NCBI GenBank assembly: GCA_947455215.1 | Contig: CANGNA010000001.1 | Coordinates: 52,800-116,799 of the forward strand | Direction of reading: 5' to 3' | DNA: 64,000 nucleotides | From: Chitinophagaceae bacterium | GTDB lineage: Bacteria > Bacteroidota > Bacteroidia > Chitinophagales > Chitinophagaceae | In this document: one piece after another, positions 3,675 through 49,088 of the stretch | How positions within the stretch are numbered: the stretch's first letter is position 1 | How the letters are laid out: each line of letters begins with the position of its first letter | Translations under genes and position numbers: made by a program | Notes under the pieces: model-generated | Database searches by the model: none | Seen by the model: only the letters and a program-made list of their open reading frames with translations | Told to the model about the DNA's origin: nothing

Positions 3675-4505
3675 ATGAGACCAGCAAGTACACCCGCATA
3701 CGTTAAGGAGATACTCGGCTATGCCAATGCAGATAAGGTGCAACTGGCTAAGTGTGCCTACGCTCAAACTGATCATACCGCTCCGCTGGTCTCTATAGTG
3801 ATACCGGCGTATAATGAGGAGGAGCATATCCTCAATCCCATTTTATCTATCAGCCGCAACACCACCAATTTTCCGTTCGAGATCATTGTTGTGAATAACA
3901 ATTCTACCGATAAAACCGGCGAACTGGCAGCATCCACAGGTATCACCTGCATACTGGAAACAAAGAAGGGTGTTACAGCAGCCCGCACTGCCGGATTAAT
4001 GGCAGCTAAGGGCAAATACGTCATCAATGCCGATGCAGATTCTATCTACCCCAAAGAATGGATCAATGAATTGATCAGCCCTATGGAGCAGGATGATAAA
4101 GTAGCGCTTGCTTATGGCAGGTTTGCCTTTATGCCCGATAAGATGACCGGCCGCTTCAGCTACTTTCTCTACGAGAACCTGGCAGATTTGCTCCGTTTAT
4201 ACAAGCGTACAATGAAGGATGAAGCCATGAATGTGTATGGCTGTAGCTCTGCATTCCGTAAAGCCGATTGTCTGAAGGTAGATCTGTATGAACATCCGCC
4301 CGGCACAGGCGAAGATGGCTGGCTGGCATTAAAGCTGCGCGACAAAGGTTTTGGCCGCCTGCATTATGTAAGCACCATGAAGGCATTGGTATGGACCATA
4401 GACCGCCACCTGCAGCAGGATGGCGGCTTATGGAAAGCACTTGCCATGCGCGTAAAAGGTGTGTTCTTCGGCTCCGATCCCGATAAGTATCATGTCAAGG
4501 GGTAG
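3675..4505 (+). CDS. Glycosyltransferase family 2
   Basis: SIVIPAYNEE, IVVNNNSTD, DAD motif. Confidence 0.92.
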   Translation: MRPASTPAYVKEILGYANADKVQLAKCAYAQTDHTAPLVSIVIPAYNEEEHILNPILSISRNTTNFPFEIIVVNNNSTDKTGELAASTGITCILETKKGVTAARTAGLMAAKGKYVINADADSIYPKEWINELISPMEQDDKVALAYGRFAFMPDKMTGRFSYFLYENLADLLRLYKRTMKDEAMNVYGCSSAFRKADCLKVDLYEHPPGTGEDGWLALKLRDKGFGRLHYVSTMKALVWTIDRHLQQDGGLWKALAMRVKGVFFGSDPDKYHVKG

Positions 4506-28254: not shown

Positions 28255-28405
28255 AATGGCTCAATGGCTGAATGGCTCAATGGCTGAATGAATTTGATAA
28301 TTGAGGGTAATGTGGTGGAATGTAGCAATGTGATAGAATGTGATGGAATGTGTTGGAATGTGTGAGAGTTTCTGGTATTTGAAATTTGGAACTTGGGATT
28401 TGGTT
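28255..28405. repeat. Three stacked short tandem arrays: 8-mer AATGGCTS x4, 10-mer AATGTGnTRG x5-6, 7-mer GGnATTT-like x4-5
   Basis: Read directly at 28255-28290, 28309-28363 and 28374-28405. Confidence 0.85.
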
Positions 28406-29021: not shown

Positions 29022-29165
29022 AAGTAGAAAGTAGAAAGCTGTTTTGTAAGAAGTATCGATAGCAATAGAAAATAAATAACATAAATAGAAATGGCCCGAA
29101 GCATATGTTTCGGGCCATTTCTATTTATGACTGTAGAAAAGCTTAAGACTTTCTACTTTCTACTT
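29022..29165. repeat. 17-bp perfect inverted pair of AAGTAGA heptamer repeats (29022-29038 / 29149-29165)
   Basis: aagtagaaagtagaaag ... ctttctactttctactt. Confidence 0.85.
29081..29128. terminator. Bidirectional terminator between marR and accC
   Basis: Perfect 20-bp stem ataaatagaaatggcccgaa / ttcgggccatttctatttat. Confidence 0.9.
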
Positions 29166-29173
29166 ACGACTAA

Positions 29174-30511
29174 TTACAACAGCTTGAAGCTTTCGATGAA
29201 TTTGGTAGTGAAGTTGCCTGCGCGGAAGTCGGGGTCGCGCATCAGCTGCATGTGGAAAGGTATGGTTGTTTTCACACCTTCTATCACATATTCGCTAAGG
29301 GCGCGCTCCATTGTATTGATGGCTTCTTCGCGGGTCTGGGCTACTGCGATCACCTTAGCGATCATAGAATCGTAATAAGGCGGGATGGTATAGCCTGCGT
29401 AGATATGCGAGTCGACACGCACACCGTGGCCACCCGGCGTGTGCAGGGTAGTGATCTTGCCAGGGCACGGACGGAAATCGTTGTACGGATCTTCGGCATT
29501 GATACGGCACTCGATAGCGTGGATCTTTGGTTCGTAGTTCTTACCGCTGATAGGTATGCCTGCTGCGATCTTGATCTGTTCTTTGATCAGATCGTAACTG
29601 ATCACTTCTTCAGTAACACCGTGCTCTACCTGGATACGCGTGTTCATTTCCATGAAGTAGAAATTGCGGTGCTTGTCTACCAGGAACTCTATGGTACCAA
29701 CACTTTCGTAGTTGATAGCAGAGGCTGCCTTGATAGCTGCTTCACCCATCTTCTGGCGCAGTTCCGGCGTCATGAACGGAGAAGGTGACTCTTCTACCAG
29801 CTTCTGGTGACGACGCTGTATAGAGCAGTCGCGCTCAGACAGGTGACAAACGGTACCAAACTGGTCGCCGGCAACCTGTATCTCTATATGGCGGGGTTCT
29901 TCAACGAACTTCTCCATATAGATACCATCGTTCTTGAAAGAAGCTGCTGCTTCTATCTTGGCGGTATTATAGGCATATTCCAGTTCGCTTTCTTCCCATA
30001 CCACGCGCATACCCTTACCACCACCACCTGCAGTGGCCTTAATGATAACCGGATAGCCCATGGCTTTAGCAATACCCTTGGCTTCGTCCACGCTCTGCAA
30101 CAGACCGTCGGAGCCAGGTATCACGGGTACGTTGGCCTTTATCATGGTTTCCTTCGCAGTGATCTTGTCTCCCATAGAGTTGATCATCTCCGGCGTAGGG
30201 CCAATGAATTTGATATTGTATTTGGCACATATCTCGGCAAACTTGGCATTTTCTGCCAGGAAGCCATAGCCCGGGTGAATGGCGTCGGCATTGGTAATTT
30301 CTGCCGCTGCCATTATATGCTGTATGTTCAGGTAAGAGTCGCTGCTCTGTGCCTTGCCTATGCATACTGCCTCGTCGGCAAAGCGCACGTGCAGGCTCTC
30401 CTTATCGGCAGTAGAGTATACTGCAACGGTACGGATGCCCATCTCGCGGCAGGTACGAATGATACGCAGTGCGATCTCACCCCTGTTGGCAATCAGTATT
30501 TTTTTAAACAT
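29174..30511 (-). CDS. accC: Acetyl-CoA carboxylase biotin carboxylase subunit
   Basis: [43 protein letters not shown]; the TTG at 30529 lies in the repeat and is not the start. Confidence 0.98.
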
Positions 30512-30519
30512 CTTTTTCA

Positions 30520-30557
30520 AATGGCTCAATGGCTTAATGGCTCAATGGCTTAATGCT
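30520..30557. repeat. AATGGCTY x4 octamer array just upstream of the accC start
   Basis: aatggctc aatggctt aatggctc aatggctt aatgct. Confidence 0.9.
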
Positions 30558-30635
30558 TTTGCCTTCGGCAACAAATGGAGCAATACCTTAATTATTTACT
30601 CCATTGTCATTAGCTTTTGTGCCGCCGTTGATATT

Positions 30636-31004
30636 TTATTGTTTAACCAAATTTTTTCTCGCAGTGTTTATTATGGAGCCAACTACTTTGTTGACCTCTT
30701 CCAGCTTTTTTATCAGTACTGAGCAATCGGGGTATGTTTCACTGTAATCGCAAATCCATAACCAGTATTGCGTTTCTTCAGCTTCCTTACCTGCTATCCT
30801 CATTTTATGAAGGAAGTCGGCCTTGCTTTCTGCATTCTGAGCTTCCATTGCATTTGCACCTATCGAAGTTCCGGAACGTAATAGCTGCCTTGCTACAATA
30901 AACTTTTTATTTGCTTCCAGCACCTCGCAATATTCAATGATCATCAGAGAAAAGTCGAAAGATATTTTAAGAACAGGATTCTTATCGAACACTTCTTTTC
31001 TCAT
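30636..31004 (-). CDS. Four-helix-bundle protein (TIGR02436 / 23S rRNA IVS protein / Avd-like family)
   Basis: QLLRSGTSIGAN..EAQ.AESKADF.HK..IA.KEA.ET.YWL signature. Confidence 0.93.
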   Translation of the reverse strand: MRKEVFDKNPVLKISFDFSLMIIEYCEVLEANKKFIVARQLLRSGTSIGANAMEAQNAESKADFLHKMRIAGKEAEETQYWLWICDYSETYPDCSVLIKKLEEVNKVVGSIINTARKNLVKQ

Positions 31005-31034
31005 GTTGTTTCATTGGATAGTGTAAAGATCCGG

Positions 31035-31074
31035 AATTGAGCCATTGAGCAATTCAGCCATTGAGCAATTAAGC
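31035..31074. repeat. ATTGAGCC-type octamer array, inverted relative to 30520-30557, overlapping the accB stop
   Basis: aattgagcc attgagca attcagcc attgagca attaagc. Confidence 0.9.
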
Positions 31075-31560
31075 AGGTTCAACAAGGAACAGTGGCTGAT
31101 CGTACTCAACAGGAGAAGAGTCGTCTACCAGTACCTTTACCACGCGGCCGCTCACTTCGCACTCGATCTCGTTGAAGAGCTTCATGGCTTCGATGATGCA
31201 TACTACCTGGCCTGCTTTCACTTCATCGCCTACGTTCACGAACACCGGCTTGTCAGGGCCAGGGCTGCGGTAGAAAGTACCGATCATTGGAGACTTGACA
31301 GTTACAGCTTTTGATGAGCCGGCATCAGCAGCAGGAGCAGCCGGTGCAGGAGCAGCAGCGGCAGGCGCTGCCGGTGCAGGTGCCGCCATTTGTGGCATAG
31401 CCATAGGCATGGCAGGTGCTGCAGGCATAGCATAAGTAACCTGGCCGGCAGAGAATTCCTGTTTGATGGTGATCTTGAAATCGCCGTCTTCAATGCTCAG
31501 TTCGCTGATGCTTGATTTATTGATCGTTTTTATCAGCTCCTGTATTTGCTTATATTCCAT
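31069..31560 (-). CDS. accB: Acetyl-CoA carboxylase biotin carboxyl carrier protein
   Basis: Ala/Pro linker, SPMIGTFY, EAMKLFNEIE. Confidence 0.98.
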   Translation of the reverse strand: MEYKQIQELIKTINKSSISELSIEDGDFKITIKQEFSAGQVTYAMPAAPAMPMAMPQMAAPAPAAPAAAAPAPAAPAADAGSSKAVTVKSPMIGTFYRSPGPDKPVFVNVGDEVKAGQVVCIIEAMKLFNEIECEVSGRVVKVLVDDSSPVEYDQPLFLVEPA

Positions 31561-31713: not shown

Positions 31714-31750
31714 AATTGAGCCATTAAGCTATTGAGCCATTAAGCCATTG
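31714..31750. repeat. Orphan GAGCCATT octamer array just after the efp stop
   Basis: aattgagccattaagctattgagccattaagccattg. Confidence 0.9.
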
Positions 31751-31756
31751 CAAAAA

Positions 31757-32323
31757 CTATTCTTTCACGCGTTCTACGTATGCTGCTGTTTTTGCATCTA
31801 CCTTGATCAGGTCGCCTTCGTTCACGAACAATGGCACCTGTACGGTTGCACCTGTTTCCAGCGTTGCAGCTTTCATTGCACGGGTGGCAGTATCGCCCTT
31901 CAGGCCCGGCTCAGAGTAGGTAACACGCAGGTTAACGCTCGATGGCAGTTCTACGCTCATTGGCATTTCTGAATCTGTATTGAAGATAACGAAGCACTCC
32001 TGGCCGTCTTTGTACAGTTCCGGATGTTCTACCATGCTTTCAGCAATGATGATCTGCTCGAAAGAGGTATTGTCCATCAGGTTGAAACCGCTATCGTCTT
32101 TGTACAGGAACTGGTAGTTGCGCTTTTCTACGCGAACGGGGAAAATGTTATCACCAGAGTTCCATGTGTGCTCTATTGTACGGGTATTATCAACACCTTT
32201 CAGTTTGGCCCACACCTTAGCTGCAGCGCGTGCAGTTTTGTTCTGGCCAAATTCTACCACTGAATAAAGATTGTTGTCAAGCTTGATGATCAAGCCTGTA
32301 CGCATGTCTGCTGTTGTAGCCAT
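31757..32323 (-). CDS. efp: Elongation factor P
   Basis: MATTADMRTG, EPGLKGDTAT, VQVPLFVNEGDLIKVD; TACATTTG box at 32352-32359 (-). Confidence 0.96.
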   Translation of the reverse strand: MATTADMRTGLIIKLDNNLYSVVEFGQNKTARAAAKVWAKLKGVDNTRTIEHTWNSGDNIFPVRVEKRNYQFLYKDDSGFNLMDNTSFEQIIIAESMVEHPELYKDGQECFVIFNTDSEMPMSVELPSSVNLRVTYSEPGLKGDTATRAMKAATLETGATVQVPLFVNEGDLIKVDAKTAAYVERVKE

Positions 32324-32697
32324 GAAATTATTTATTTTTTTATACGGACTGCAAATGTAAGGAATGATGTTGAAATAAAGTATATCGGGTTGAGCAGTTA
32401 TTTGTCTTTTATGCAAGGCGCAAAATCTGCGAATAATGAATTATTTAAAGACTTTTGCAACGCTGCAAAAATGATAAATAGCAATTAAACGGGTGTACTT
32501 TATTTCAACATCGTTACGCAACATAAAAAGGATAAAGAAAAATCGGAAGGCGGCGGCAGGGTGGTGTTGTGGAAAAATACATGCCTGCCTGGCGCAATAG
32601 CTTGTGCTTCCTGACGCAGATGGACCACTTTTTGACGTTTTTCTCCCTTACGGTGTAGTGGCTGCACAGTACATTTGATCCATAAAACACACAACAT

Positions 32698-45684: not shown

Positions 45685-45903
45685 TTAGCCCTCTTGTACT
45701 GTGGGACTGTAGTAGTTAACCTGTACGGTGTACCATGGTTTGTTAGGATCGTTGGTGGGGGTGACGACCACGGGCTGTATGTGGAAGTTGCTCATGGTGC
45801 CGGCATCTATGCCTGCCCTGATAAATTGGTTGACTACATCGGTTACAGAGGCTATAGTGCCATGTACGCCTAATACTGAGAATACTGCTGTTTGGTTGGT
45901 CAT
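45685..45903 (-). CDS. Small hypothetical protein (72 aa)
   Basis: A/C-rich leader typical of Bacteroidota; own terminator. Confidence 0.6.
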   Translation of the reverse strand: MTNQTAVFSVLGVHGTIASVTDVVNQFIRAGIDAGTMSNFHIQPVVVTPTNDPNKPWYTVQVNYYSPTVQEG

Positions 45904-46263
45904 AGTTTATGTTTTTGGTTTGTGTTTATGTTTATGGTTTGGTTTTGATTTGTAGGGGCTGCCCTTAGACTATTTTTCCTCTGTAGCGAAGTCAAAAAAG
46001 ACATAGCAGAACTGTTTTTTGTTTCCTTTGCTTTTAGAACACTACGCTGAACAGGATACTGCTGTCTGGTTGGTCATAGTTTATGTTTTTTGGTTTGTGT
46101 TTGTGTTTGTGTTTGTGTTTGGTTTGTGATGGCAAAGACTATGCTTGTTTTAAGTGGAGTCTATGTTTGATGTTATTAAACTTTTACTTTTTGTCTTTCT
46201 CTTCTATTTACCCTATAGTCTGAGCTGAAATTGGTACAGTACAATACCATTATTTTATTGCCT

Positions 46264-47659: not shown

Positions 47660-48256
47660 CTAAGTGCGCCTATATTGTTCGAACCAATACTTTTCAATGC
47701 ATTCGGTCACATGAATAACATTGTACACCCCGTGTCGGCCTGTCTCATAAAATCCTGCGGAACTATGTGTGTAGTCTCCCGGGAACTGTACGAGATCCCA
47801 TTTTTTGCTGACCGGGTTGTTATGAATATAGTTTAATTTTTGATTGATGAATGCATATGAGTGACACAATTTAGCATCGAATGATGGCTTAAACACTTCA
47901 TGCAACTTGCCGTTATTCTTGTCGGAGGTGGAAACGCCAGCCGAAAGTACAGATAGTATATCTGTACTTTTGTTCAACTTTAATCTATTTACAATATCAT
48001 ACGCCATGAAGCGCTTTGCGTTGCCGATCATAGTATTAATGCTTTGTGTGCCTGGAGTAAACCCTATCAATGCATGAATGTGATTAGGCATGATAACATA
48101 ACCGGTGACGTGGTGACCCTTTTGCTGCAAAATGTCGAACCATTTATAAACCAGGTCATACGCATTGGTCAGTTCAAATAACAGTAGCCATTTGAAGTTA
48201 GTAAATGTGATAAAATATATGCCCGGCTGGTAGAGGTGGGGTTTGTTTACTGGCAT
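47660..48256 (-). mobile_element. REP-associated tyrosine transposase (RAYT, IS200/IS605 TnpA-like HUH-Y1)
   Basis: YFITFTN..W, YVIMPNHIHAL (HUH), KLNYIHNNPV (catalytic Tyr region), HSSAGFY; flanked by inverted REPs. Confidence 0.92.
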
Positions 48257-48281
48257 AGGATGAAGATACGATTTTTTGCTG

Positions 48282-49088
48282 CCCACCCGATGTCGCCGGG
48301 TCCTCGCTGCGCGCAATGCCGGCTCACTGAGAGACCCGGCGAGGACGGGAATGTATGCCCGGCTGGAGGAGGTGGCGTTTTTTTATTGGCATAGGATGAT
48401 TTTTTGCTGCCCACCCGATGTCGCCGGGTCCTCGCTGCGCACAATGCCGGCGCACTGAGAGACCCGGCGAGGACGGAAATGTATGCCCGGCTGGAGGAGG
48501 TGGGGTTTGTTTACTGGCATAGGATGAAGATACGATTTTTTGCTGCCCACCCGATATCGCCGGGTCCTCGCTGCGCGCAATGCAGGCTCACTGAGAGACC
48601 CGGCGAGGACGGAGACGTGACCCGGCTTGGTGCCCCATGTGCTGATTGTTGGTGCCAACACCAACAATTGCGGGTATCCCACCCGATATCGCCGGGTCCT
48701 CGCTGCTGGGCAATGCCGGCGCACTGAGAGACCCGGCGAGGACGGAGACGGGTCGCACTTTACCTTGTCGCGGAAATACTCTACCGGGTGCGGGTCTACC
48801 GGGTCTAAAGGATCACCATCTTTTATCAGGTCTTTCAGCATATTGTCCAGGTTGTTGAGATCGACCATGGTAAAGCTTTCGGGGTAGCCGTTGCTGTTTC
48901 GCAAGCGGGACGCTTGCCATAGTGGAGGACGAAGCGGGACGCTTACGACCAGTGTGGGTACTAATACTGCTTAGCGCCCCGCGTGCTGATCGTTGGTGGG
49001 AACACCAACAATGGCGTGTATCCCACCCGATGTCGCCGGGTTCTCGCTACGCGCAATGCCGGCGCACTGAGCGACCCGGCGAGGACGG
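48282..49088. repeat. Array of five 67-68-bp REP units (48282, 48410, 48546, 48678, 49022) with two embedded REP2 copies (48627-48671, 48971-49015)
   Basis: cccacccgatRtcgccgggtcctcgct...agagacccggcgaggacgg repeated. Confidence 0.92.

Follow-up and report, generated by a model that had tools for sequence, protein, structure and literature searches.

A four-helix-bundle gene between inverted octamer arrays at the accB-accC junction of a Chitinophagaceae genome: a candidate exchangeable cassette of Bacteroidota operon junctions

Why should the gene of a four-helix bundle (4HB) protein lie between accB and accC, enclosed by inverted arrays of an eight-nucleotide repeat? The question is raised by positions 30520 to 31075 of a 64,000-nucleotide stretch of DNA from a Chitinophagaceae bacterium (contig CANGNA010000001.1, positions 52,800 to 116,799; hereafter the window), where an earlier note, made from the sequence alone, had proposed a mobile cassette looped out of the accB-accC messenger RNA. 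The answer developed below, to which I give about an even chance, is that this segment is one copy of a widespread Bacteroidota element, hereafter the junction cassette, made of a promoter-less PF05635 gene between inverted tandem arrays. The locus is organized as follows.

31757–32326, minus strand: efp, with EF-P domains.
31069–31560, minus strand: accB, biotin carboxyl carrier protein (TIGR00531, 176 bits).
31035–31075, minus strand: 5′ (F) arm, about five tandem octamers AATTGCTC/AATGGCTG/AATGGCTC as read on the mRNA strand (Tandem Repeats Finder, TRF: period 8, 5.1 copies).
31005–31034, minus strand: leader of 30 nt from the 5′ arm to the 4HB ATG, in which the promoter scan called no promoter-like site.
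30636–31004, minus strand: 4HB gene, 122 amino acids, PF05635/TIGR02436, intact (profile scores, fold and alignment).
30556–30635, minus strand: 3′ spacer of 80 nt from the 4HB stop to the 3′ arm, with a small local hairpin at 30574–30605.
30520–30555, minus strand: 3′ (R) arm, 4.5 tandem octamers GAGCCATT/AAGCCATT as read on the mRNA strand (TRF: period 8).
29174–30511, minus strand: accC, biotin carboxylase (TIGR00514, 728.6 bits).

The cassette occupies precisely the spacer from the stop codon of one operon gene to the start codon of the next. At the upstream edge, the last codon of accB and its TAA stop (31071–31069) fall within the first repeat unit of the 5′ array, and the protein ends in ...EPA* in the window and in ...EPM* in relatives. 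The string that the earlier note had placed right at the accB stop, AATTGCTCAATGGCTGAATTGCTCAATGGCTCAAT, spans 31070 to 31036 on the minus strand and does start there, two bases inside the TAA. At the downstream edge, exactly 8 nt (TGAAAAAG) separate the 3′ arm from the accC ATG (30511–30509), the position of which is fixed by an alignment to TIGR00514 that begins at residue 1. Both this distance and the near complementarity of the arms are as claimed before: in the repeat search 31036–31070 and 30520–30554 form an inverted pair of 35 nt that is 89% complementary (31/35). A 16-nt super-period is detected by TRF in both arms, the 16-nt super-repeat of the 3′ arm being a 100% match, and the 15-mer AATGGCTCAATGGCT occurs 13 times in the window with at most 2 mismatches, compared with 0.18 occurrences expected from shuffles. 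In the minimum-free-energy fold of a 591-nt transcript the two arms are paired with each other (−160 kcal/mol, z = −3.7), and when joined by a short artificial loop they have a predicted folding energy of −40.8 kcal/mol (z = −4.8).

The promoter and terminator scan gave no call within the element, and the only strong terminator-like hairpin lies after accC. Identification of the element as an intrinsic terminator was rejected since an A-rich tract, and no U-tract, comes after the R arm; an operator array for a transcription factor was likewise considered and rejected. Rfam returned no family at the locus (E-value mode) or across the whole window (gathering mode), where rRNA is absent too, and only tRNAs in a scan of ten related loci. 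There is no second 4HB gene within the window. The neighbourhood comprises efp, accB, accC, a MarR gene, lepA, a glyoxalase gene and a two-component system. That transposase, integrase and reverse transcriptase genes are lacking nearby had been remarked before; none was found among the genes within about 5 kb, nor in the Pfam list of a syntenic locus of a close relative (L168, see below).

The protein itself is a member of PF05635/TIGR02436 by score and by fold, in agreement with its previous assignment. It scores 70.3 bits against PF05635 (cut-off 33.8) and 83.7 bits against TIGR02436 (cut-off 24), and its alignment-based AlphaFold2 model (pLDDT 89.9) consists of four long helices. Foldseek matches this model to 2RLD, the structure of BT_0352 from Bacteroides thetaiotaomicron (TM 0.79–0.89; phmmer E = 7.8e-21), and to 2GSC, that of Xcc0516 (TM 0.80). 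Matches to Avd, the accessory protein of diversity-generating retroelements (DGRs), are weak (TM 0.52–0.63, E > 0.2), so that of the homology with Avd put forward in the earlier note a distant fold resemblance (TM 0.5–0.6) is retained and a closer link is not. Close homologues are very numerous and strongly conserved: an alignment of 28 sequences at 68–87% identity has 43 invariant columns, and the window copy keeps all family-invariant residues. With respect to the motif GxxRxxxSxxxNxxE conserved in the PF05635 family (PMC3936711), it has R43, S47, N51 and E54, with Q40 at the G position; S47, N51 and E54 are invariant in the alignment. Both 2RLD and 2GSC contain five chains per entry and Xcc0516 has been described as a homopentamer (PMC4990558), which suggests that the window protein is pentameric too. 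PADLOC and PHROGs gave no match for it.

Are the inverted arrays peculiar to this locus? A survey of homologues, one of the checks proposed in the earlier note, was carried out on two sets of loci. Set 1 comprised 84 loci from the window's clade and its relatives down to 50% identity, spread over Flavobacteriia, Saprospiraceae, Bacteroidales, Sphingobacteriia and Cytophagia. Set 2 comprised 72 BT_0352-like loci, for which the BT_0352 sequence was rebuilt from the PDB alignment, its locus retrieved and metagenome contigs scanned. In all, about 155 loci from two 4HB clades have the gene between inverted tandem arrays, so that arrays are the rule. In most of the 84 loci of set 1, the sequence upstream of the gene matches the inverted downstream sequence to a degree far above that of shuffles. 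With an array called wherever at least four AAT triplets stood in phase 8 (the periodicity thresholds are arbitrary but shuffle-controlled), arrays were found in both flanks of 44 of the 84 loci (51 upstream, 58 downstream), and 93 additional calls were made elsewhere in these loci, compared with a single one when all 550 kb were shuffled. At BT_0352, which is placed between araD and araA, the inverted arrays on the two sides consist of the heptamer AATTGAC. Set 2 had 59 upstream and 62 downstream flanks of period 7 and none of period 8; set 1 had period 8 and in no case period 7. Arrays of set 2 most often contain five units, and the period is the same on both sides of the gene in 60 of 61 loci. 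The array design is therefore general and each protein clade has its own period, 8 nt in that of the window and 7 nt in that of BT_0352; octamers, as named in the earlier note, are not general. In L105 a deletion joins the 3′ end of araD to codon 30 of the 4HB gene, and in L100 the frame of the 4HB gene stays open over about 1.8 kb, indicating a disrupted copy.

The genomic habit of these genes is equally uniform. The 4HB gene and the genes on either side of it share one orientation in 78 of 81 loci of set 1 and 44 of 50 loci of set 2, that is in 122/131 overall (93%), with gaps of tens of nucleotides. The cassette is thus oriented with its host operon, as expected from the proposal that it inserts at junctions of co-transcribed genes in their orientation. 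The neighbours are typically partner genes, as in leuC|leuD, sufB|sufC, pyrB|pyrI, hmgA|hppD, pflB|pflA, araD|araA and accB|accC; further contexts are HlyD|ABC, PBP1|radA and the neighbourhoods of hsdM and hsdR. Since arabinose utilization and restriction-modification loci serve as hosts as well, the claim that essential operons are the target is too narrow. Two copies at such junctions have been described in other terms, one between gmk and nadD in Flavobacterium columnare, read as a phage region (PMC5524665), and a PF05635 gene between cmr3 and cmr2 in a cyanobacterium, read as cas-associated (PMC3936711). In two metagenome loci (L135:1257–1330 and L160:4404–4476) the 3′ array of a 4HB cassette directly adjoins a gene for tRNA-Arg(CCU) that is encoded on the other strand, an exception to the context of co-directional protein genes.

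Arrays are not confined to spacers that hold a 4HB gene. When spacers were scored for strict periodicity, arrays were present in 58% of those adjacent to a 4HB gene, in 14% of the other co-directional spacers of these loci, in 3% of the divergent or convergent ones and in 0/697 shuffled spacers. Many of the extra arrays belong to complete hairpins without a gene, and gene-less hairpins of matching unit type neighbour 4HB copies. The locus L033 provides an example in which successive junctions of one co-directional row of genes hold hairpins, including the spacer after leuD, while leuC|leuD holds a 4HB copy; these hairpins start at the stop codon of a gene and end about 12 bases before the next ATG. 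In B. thetaiotaomicron, araD, the 4HB gene and araA are covered in one piece by RNA-seq contigs, which fits co-transcription in this one example; the data being assembled contigs, they show no transcript ends and may include DNA, and repeat collapse confounds their breaks at arrays. Several further RNA contigs of B. thetaiotaomicron have only the AATTGAC arrays in common with this locus (L089:3955–3987 and 4392–4422), and in one of them 51 nt separate an F from an R array. It would follow that the array family is transcribed at other loci of this organism, including at least one gene-less hairpin.

How old is the copy at accB|accC? Inspection of gene contexts, together with a scan in which each species was represented by one genome, gave the order efp-accB-4HB-accC in 27 loci from as many genomes, in Flavipsychrobacter, Taibaiella, Ferruginibacter, Ginsengibacter, Hanamia, Terrimonas, Cnuella, Lacibacter, Phnomibacter and other Chitinophagaceae. 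The 4HB proteins encoded at this junction are each other's closest relatives (57–89% identity), all copies from other contexts scoring lower. The gene was therefore gained a single time, early in the history of Chitinophagaceae, and has since been passed on vertically, with purifying selection acting on it. In all 27 orthologous loci, an array begins 0–10 nt past the accB stop and the inverted array ends about 5–12 nt before the accC ATG. The unit type varies by lineage (AATGGCTC; AATGTGCT/AATTAGCT; AATGTGCA; AATTTGAA) and is common to both arms of a locus. The complementarity of an arm to its own partner averages 19.6 in these loci, as against 11.6 for arms taken from different loci, and none of 2000 permutations reached the observed mean. 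The two arms of a locus therefore co-vary.

This vertical history is accompanied by turnover at the junction. A search with accB retrieved close relatives of the window organism, three of which (L168–L170) are syntenic with the window from the two-component genes through efp, accB, accC and MarR to lepA. Their accB and accC are 97–98% identical to those of the window right up to the junction, where the 4HB gene is missing: homology ends at 31076 and restarts at 30510, at the outer ends of the arrays, and a 128-nt hairpin of AAGTAGA-type heptamers takes the place of the window's 565 nt. This hairpin resembles, down to the non-repeat bases beside the arrays, one that lies downstream of accC in both genomes, and on this resemblance it appears to be a paralogue of it. 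A third state is seen in L172, about 90–92% identical to the window, in which the junction is filled by a gene-less hairpin of AATTCGAC octamers, while more distant relatives have plain accB-accC spacers of 38–104 nt. Drift at five of the eight unit positions is incompatible with a flank divergence of 2–10%, so these differences represent replacements with breakpoints at the outer array ends; gradual change of one array type into another in place was rejected. The 4HB cassette is then, by this comparison, both dispensable and exchangeable, because in a near-identical genome this junction is filled by a gene-less hairpin from a different repeat family.

The comparison of filled and empty alleles, proposed in the earlier note, thus upholds its idea of a cassette at this junction. 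This copy is not a recent arrival, given its synteny in 27 genomes, a finding which the earlier note had itself named as speaking against its proposal. No direct repeat indicative of a target-site duplication is evident outside the arms at accB|accC of the window, L168 or L172, although slippage could hide one. The window organism is represented by a metagenome-assembled genome from a lake; just one metatranscriptome contained 5% of its sequence words, and contigs from four lake metagenomes that cover the region were too mixed with accB and accC of other species to be read. The neighbouring efp|accB junction is variable as well: it holds a solo array in the window and L172, a full hairpin of another type in L168, a hairpin of the locus's own 4HB unit type in L007, and nothing in most genera. 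In B. thetaiotaomicron-like contigs (L085–L097), the 4HB proteins of which are 98–100% identical, the 5′ array differs in unit number and composition, and in some of them extra inverted units give rise to a local hairpin.

Several further arrays in the window, missed by the earlier note, belong to the repeat families encountered so far.

31715–31750, minus strand: solo F-type array, AATGGCTT/C repeated 4.4 times, same octamer as the accB-accC arms, 7 nt after the efp stop.
28255–28290, minus strand: solo R-type array, 4.5 units, same octamer as the accB-accC arms, 27 nt before the lepA ATG.
29148–29165 and 29022–29038, minus strand: inverted AAGTAGA heptamer arrays that bracket the accC terminator hairpin (29081–29128).

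The heptamers around the accC terminator are of the same repeat family as the hairpin that substitutes for the 4HB element in L168, and about two units of the lepA-side array are left in that genome. The latter array opens a run of about 150 nt of consecutive short tandem arrays (28255–28403) in the divergent MarR-lepA spacer, made up in order of GAGCCATT (4.5 units), 8–10-nt CACATT-type units (5.6 units) and a 7-nt array; they are without inverted partner and their unit numbers differ from those in L168. Another array of about five octamers, AATTCGGC/AATTCGAC, nearly self-complementary and of another unit type than the accB-accC arms, is found at 997–1040, between the genes of a succinate dehydrogenase/fumarate reductase flavoprotein (63–887) and Fe-S subunit (~1047/1059–1829). 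It ends about 12 bases before the ATG of the Fe-S subunit gene and belongs to one unit family with the L172 accB|accC hairpin.

How could an insert of this size be tolerated between two cistrons? The picture that I favour, in equal measure confident and doubtful, is a dual one: a cassette that is exchangeable at the DNA level and whose transcript is folded so as to be tolerated within operons. The cassette would be transcribed as part of the accB-accC mRNA, and its arms would pair into an imperfect stem of about 35 bp, as in 23S rRNA intervening sequences. The stem would place the accB stop at its base, opposite the accC start, so that ribosomes finishing accB would unwind the foot of the stem and make the start of accC accessible, thereby keeping translational coupling. 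Alternatively, RNase III would release the insert and the insertion would be non-polar; there is a precedent in the 23S intervening sequence of Coxiella, which carries an S23p open reading frame (ORF) and in which RNase III cuts a terminal stem of 28 bp (PMC4990558). The 4HB protein, as a pentamer, would bind the arrays of 4–5 units and serve the maintenance or spread of the element, while the array hairpins would act as recombining ends in DNA-level turnover. Insulation or coupling of the flanking cistrons by the stem, its processing by RNase III and binding of the arrays by the pentamer are inferred.

Several observations weigh against this picture. Sense-transcript pairing should favour G·U over A·C mismatches in the stems, but the counts are 56 versus 73 in set 1, 55 versus 38 in set 2 and 111 versus 111 overall, so that selection for such pairing is not demonstrated. 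Unit positions 4–5 vary freely, with the result that the arms are about 86–91% complementary and do not covary strictly. The partnerless solo arrays (31715–31750, 28255–28290 and 997–1040) indicate that an array can persist without a stem, and no catalytic DNA-mobility protein was identified near the copies examined. Formation or cleavage of the stem in vivo is presumed by the model, and the binding of 4HB protein to arrays is suggested by unit number and clade-specific period alone. Finally, the loci sampled represent two clades of one phylum, and the gene calls made by script are crude, longest-ORF approximations.

Some of these observations would be expected of an element acting purely at the DNA level, of the kind seen in MITEs (miniature inverted-repeat transposable elements) or REPINs, in which the arrays are the ends for a recombinase encoded elsewhere, the gene-less hairpins are non-autonomous, the 4HB gene is cargo or accessory and the RNA stem is incidental. 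The lack of a G·U excess on the sense strand fits such an element, as do the exact boundaries of cassette replacement within 2–3% flank divergence, the gene-less hairpins of matching unit type beside 4HB copies and the hypervariable unit number among strains; the likeness between the L168 junction hairpin and that downstream of accC suggests copy-and-paste. It is at odds, however, with the lack of a transposase or integrase near any copy examined and of an evident target-site duplication, and by itself it does not predict the 93% co-orientation or the preference for co-directional spacers (14% vs 3%). I consider it a possible but doubtful account when taken alone; it and the dual picture are not mutually exclusive. 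Still less probable is a regulatory module acting in cis or trans, in place of a mobile element, in which the 4HB pentamer is an RNA-binding, TRAP-like regulator that binds the AAU-N5 repeats on either side of its own gene and tunes translation or stability of the neighbours, the arrays changing in place by slippage. Such a role could account for the AAT triplet that is invariant within otherwise variable units, for arrays of 4–5 units read by a protein whose relatives crystallize as pentamers, for the clade-specific period, for arrays that abut stop and start codons and for the strong conservation of the protein, and the separate 16-nt super-repeats of each arm do indicate independent slippage. 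Slippage cannot, however, convert AATGGCTC arrays to AAGTAGA or AATTCGAC at 2–10% flank divergence, for which replacement is needed; unless it spreads, a module that recurs in dozens of operons unrelated to one another is difficult to account for, and its loss in L168 shows it to be unnecessary for the host operon.

Two simpler accounts fare worse. Stable accB-accC synteny in 27 genomes and strong conservation are what a lineage-specific subunit or regulator of acetyl-CoA carboxylase would display, the arrays then being its operator or attenuator. Paralogues with the same flanks are nevertheless found at leuCD, sufBC, pyrBI, pflBA, araDA, restriction-modification and other junctions, a genome with 97–98% identical accB and accC is devoid of the gene, and distant relatives have plain spacers. 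A carboxylase-specific subunit, contradicted by the other operon contexts of the paralogues, was consequently rejected, and this whole account is very unlikely. That the arrays are chance low-complexity repeats, for which only the AT-rich nature of intergenic DNA can be invoked, has next to no probability in view of the 13 matches against 0.18 expected, the one array in 550-kb shuffles against hundreds in the loci, the 0/697 shuffled spacers and the ~155 independent loci.

The junction cassette shares traits with several known systems. It is closest to the 23S rRNA intervening sequences with an S23p/PF05635 ORF of Leptospira, Coxiella, Brucella and Xanthomonas (PMC4990558): both carry a gene of one protein family and are of comparable overall size (~430–560 nt), in both a long terminal stem (28 bp in Coxiella and, by prediction, about 35 bp here) closes the loop that contains the ORF, the element resides inside a host transcript that tolerates it, distribution is sporadic with vertical maintenance after acquisition, and no mobility gene is known. 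It differs in residing in the spacer between two protein cistrons instead of at the tip of a 23S rRNA helix (9, 25 or 45), in having arms built as tandem arrays of 7- or 8-nt units and in being accompanied by gene-less array hairpins; excision by RNase III, shown for the intervening sequences, would apply to the junction cassette by analogy. REP/REPIN-RAYT systems and the Correia elements of Neisseria are likewise short intergenic palindromic repeats, often within operons and co-transcribed. The RAYT gene too is a protein gene bounded by inverted repeats, and the system combines long vertical persistence with local turnover and presence or absence among strains. The 4HB protein, however, has no recognizable nuclease or transposase fold, in contrast to the HUH Y1 transposase of RAYT, its arrays have locus-specific units of 7–8 nt in place of one genome-wide consensus, and there are many 4HB copies across the phylum where RAYT is single.

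The distantly related Avd of DGRs (PDB 4DWL and 8UB7; PMC10053308) is also four-helical, pentameric and associated with nucleic acid, but neither a reverse transcriptase nor a template/variable repeat pair was found near the window gene, for which PADLOC gave no match. With integron cassettes the element has in common a promoter-less ORF oriented with an external promoter, imperfect inverted repeats that can fold as hairpins and exchangeability at a fixed position. Unlike these, it comes with no integrase, attI or cassette array in the window region or the related loci, its 'cargo' is always one protein family or nothing, and its sites are scattered operon junctions. No description of the arrays or of the junction habit of 4HB genes was found in the openly searchable literature, subscription-only texts being outside the search, in line with the earlier note, which knew of no described mechanism.

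Three side observations concern other parts of the window or the operon at large. A conserved motif, CCCTAYCTTAGC, stands 40–60 nt 5′ of the accB ATG in many Chitinophagaceae genera (L009–L031; for example L017, L020 and L029), but neither the window nor its nearest relatives have it; it may serve accBC as a promoter or as a regulatory site. At 45690–46130, within a stretch of about 1.3 kb without a long ORF, C/A-rich hexamer arrays, (CAAACA)n on the minus strand (TRF 45905–45945 and 46089–46128), immediately precede the start codon (ATG) of a small ORF, as well as of a truncated second copy of that ORF's 5′ end. At 48213–48613, three tandem copies of a 128-nt unit (87% matches, score 669) overlap two minus-strand ORFs.

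What do these findings mean for the family? There is a substantial chance that junction cassettes mark a new class of mobile element. A bolder version, which I offer tentatively and think rather unlikely in its entirety, is that 4HB genes, inverted 7- or 8-nt arrays and gene-less hairpins together form an unrecognized class that copies itself or is exchanged at operon stop/start junctions by means of the array hairpins, that an Avd-like pentamer reads the arrays of about five units, and that this class is also the source of the ORF-bearing 23S intervening sequences, the origin of which is a 30-year-old puzzle. 'Four helix bundle protein' is among the commonest unexplained annotations in Bacteroidota, and the uniform architecture and habit described here would explain these genes. 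They also counsel caution against guilt by association, as when the cmr3-cmr2 gene was taken to be cas-associated (PMC3936711) or the gmk-nadD copy to be part of a phage region (PMC5524665). Operon junctions in these genomes appear as hot spots of cassette turnover, even where the flanking genes are 97–98% identical. BT_0352, at araD-araA of B. thetaiotaomicron, offers a tractable model, with a crystal structure and an inducible operon. If it is true that the stems keep coupling across a 0.5-kb insert, they would be natural insulator parts.

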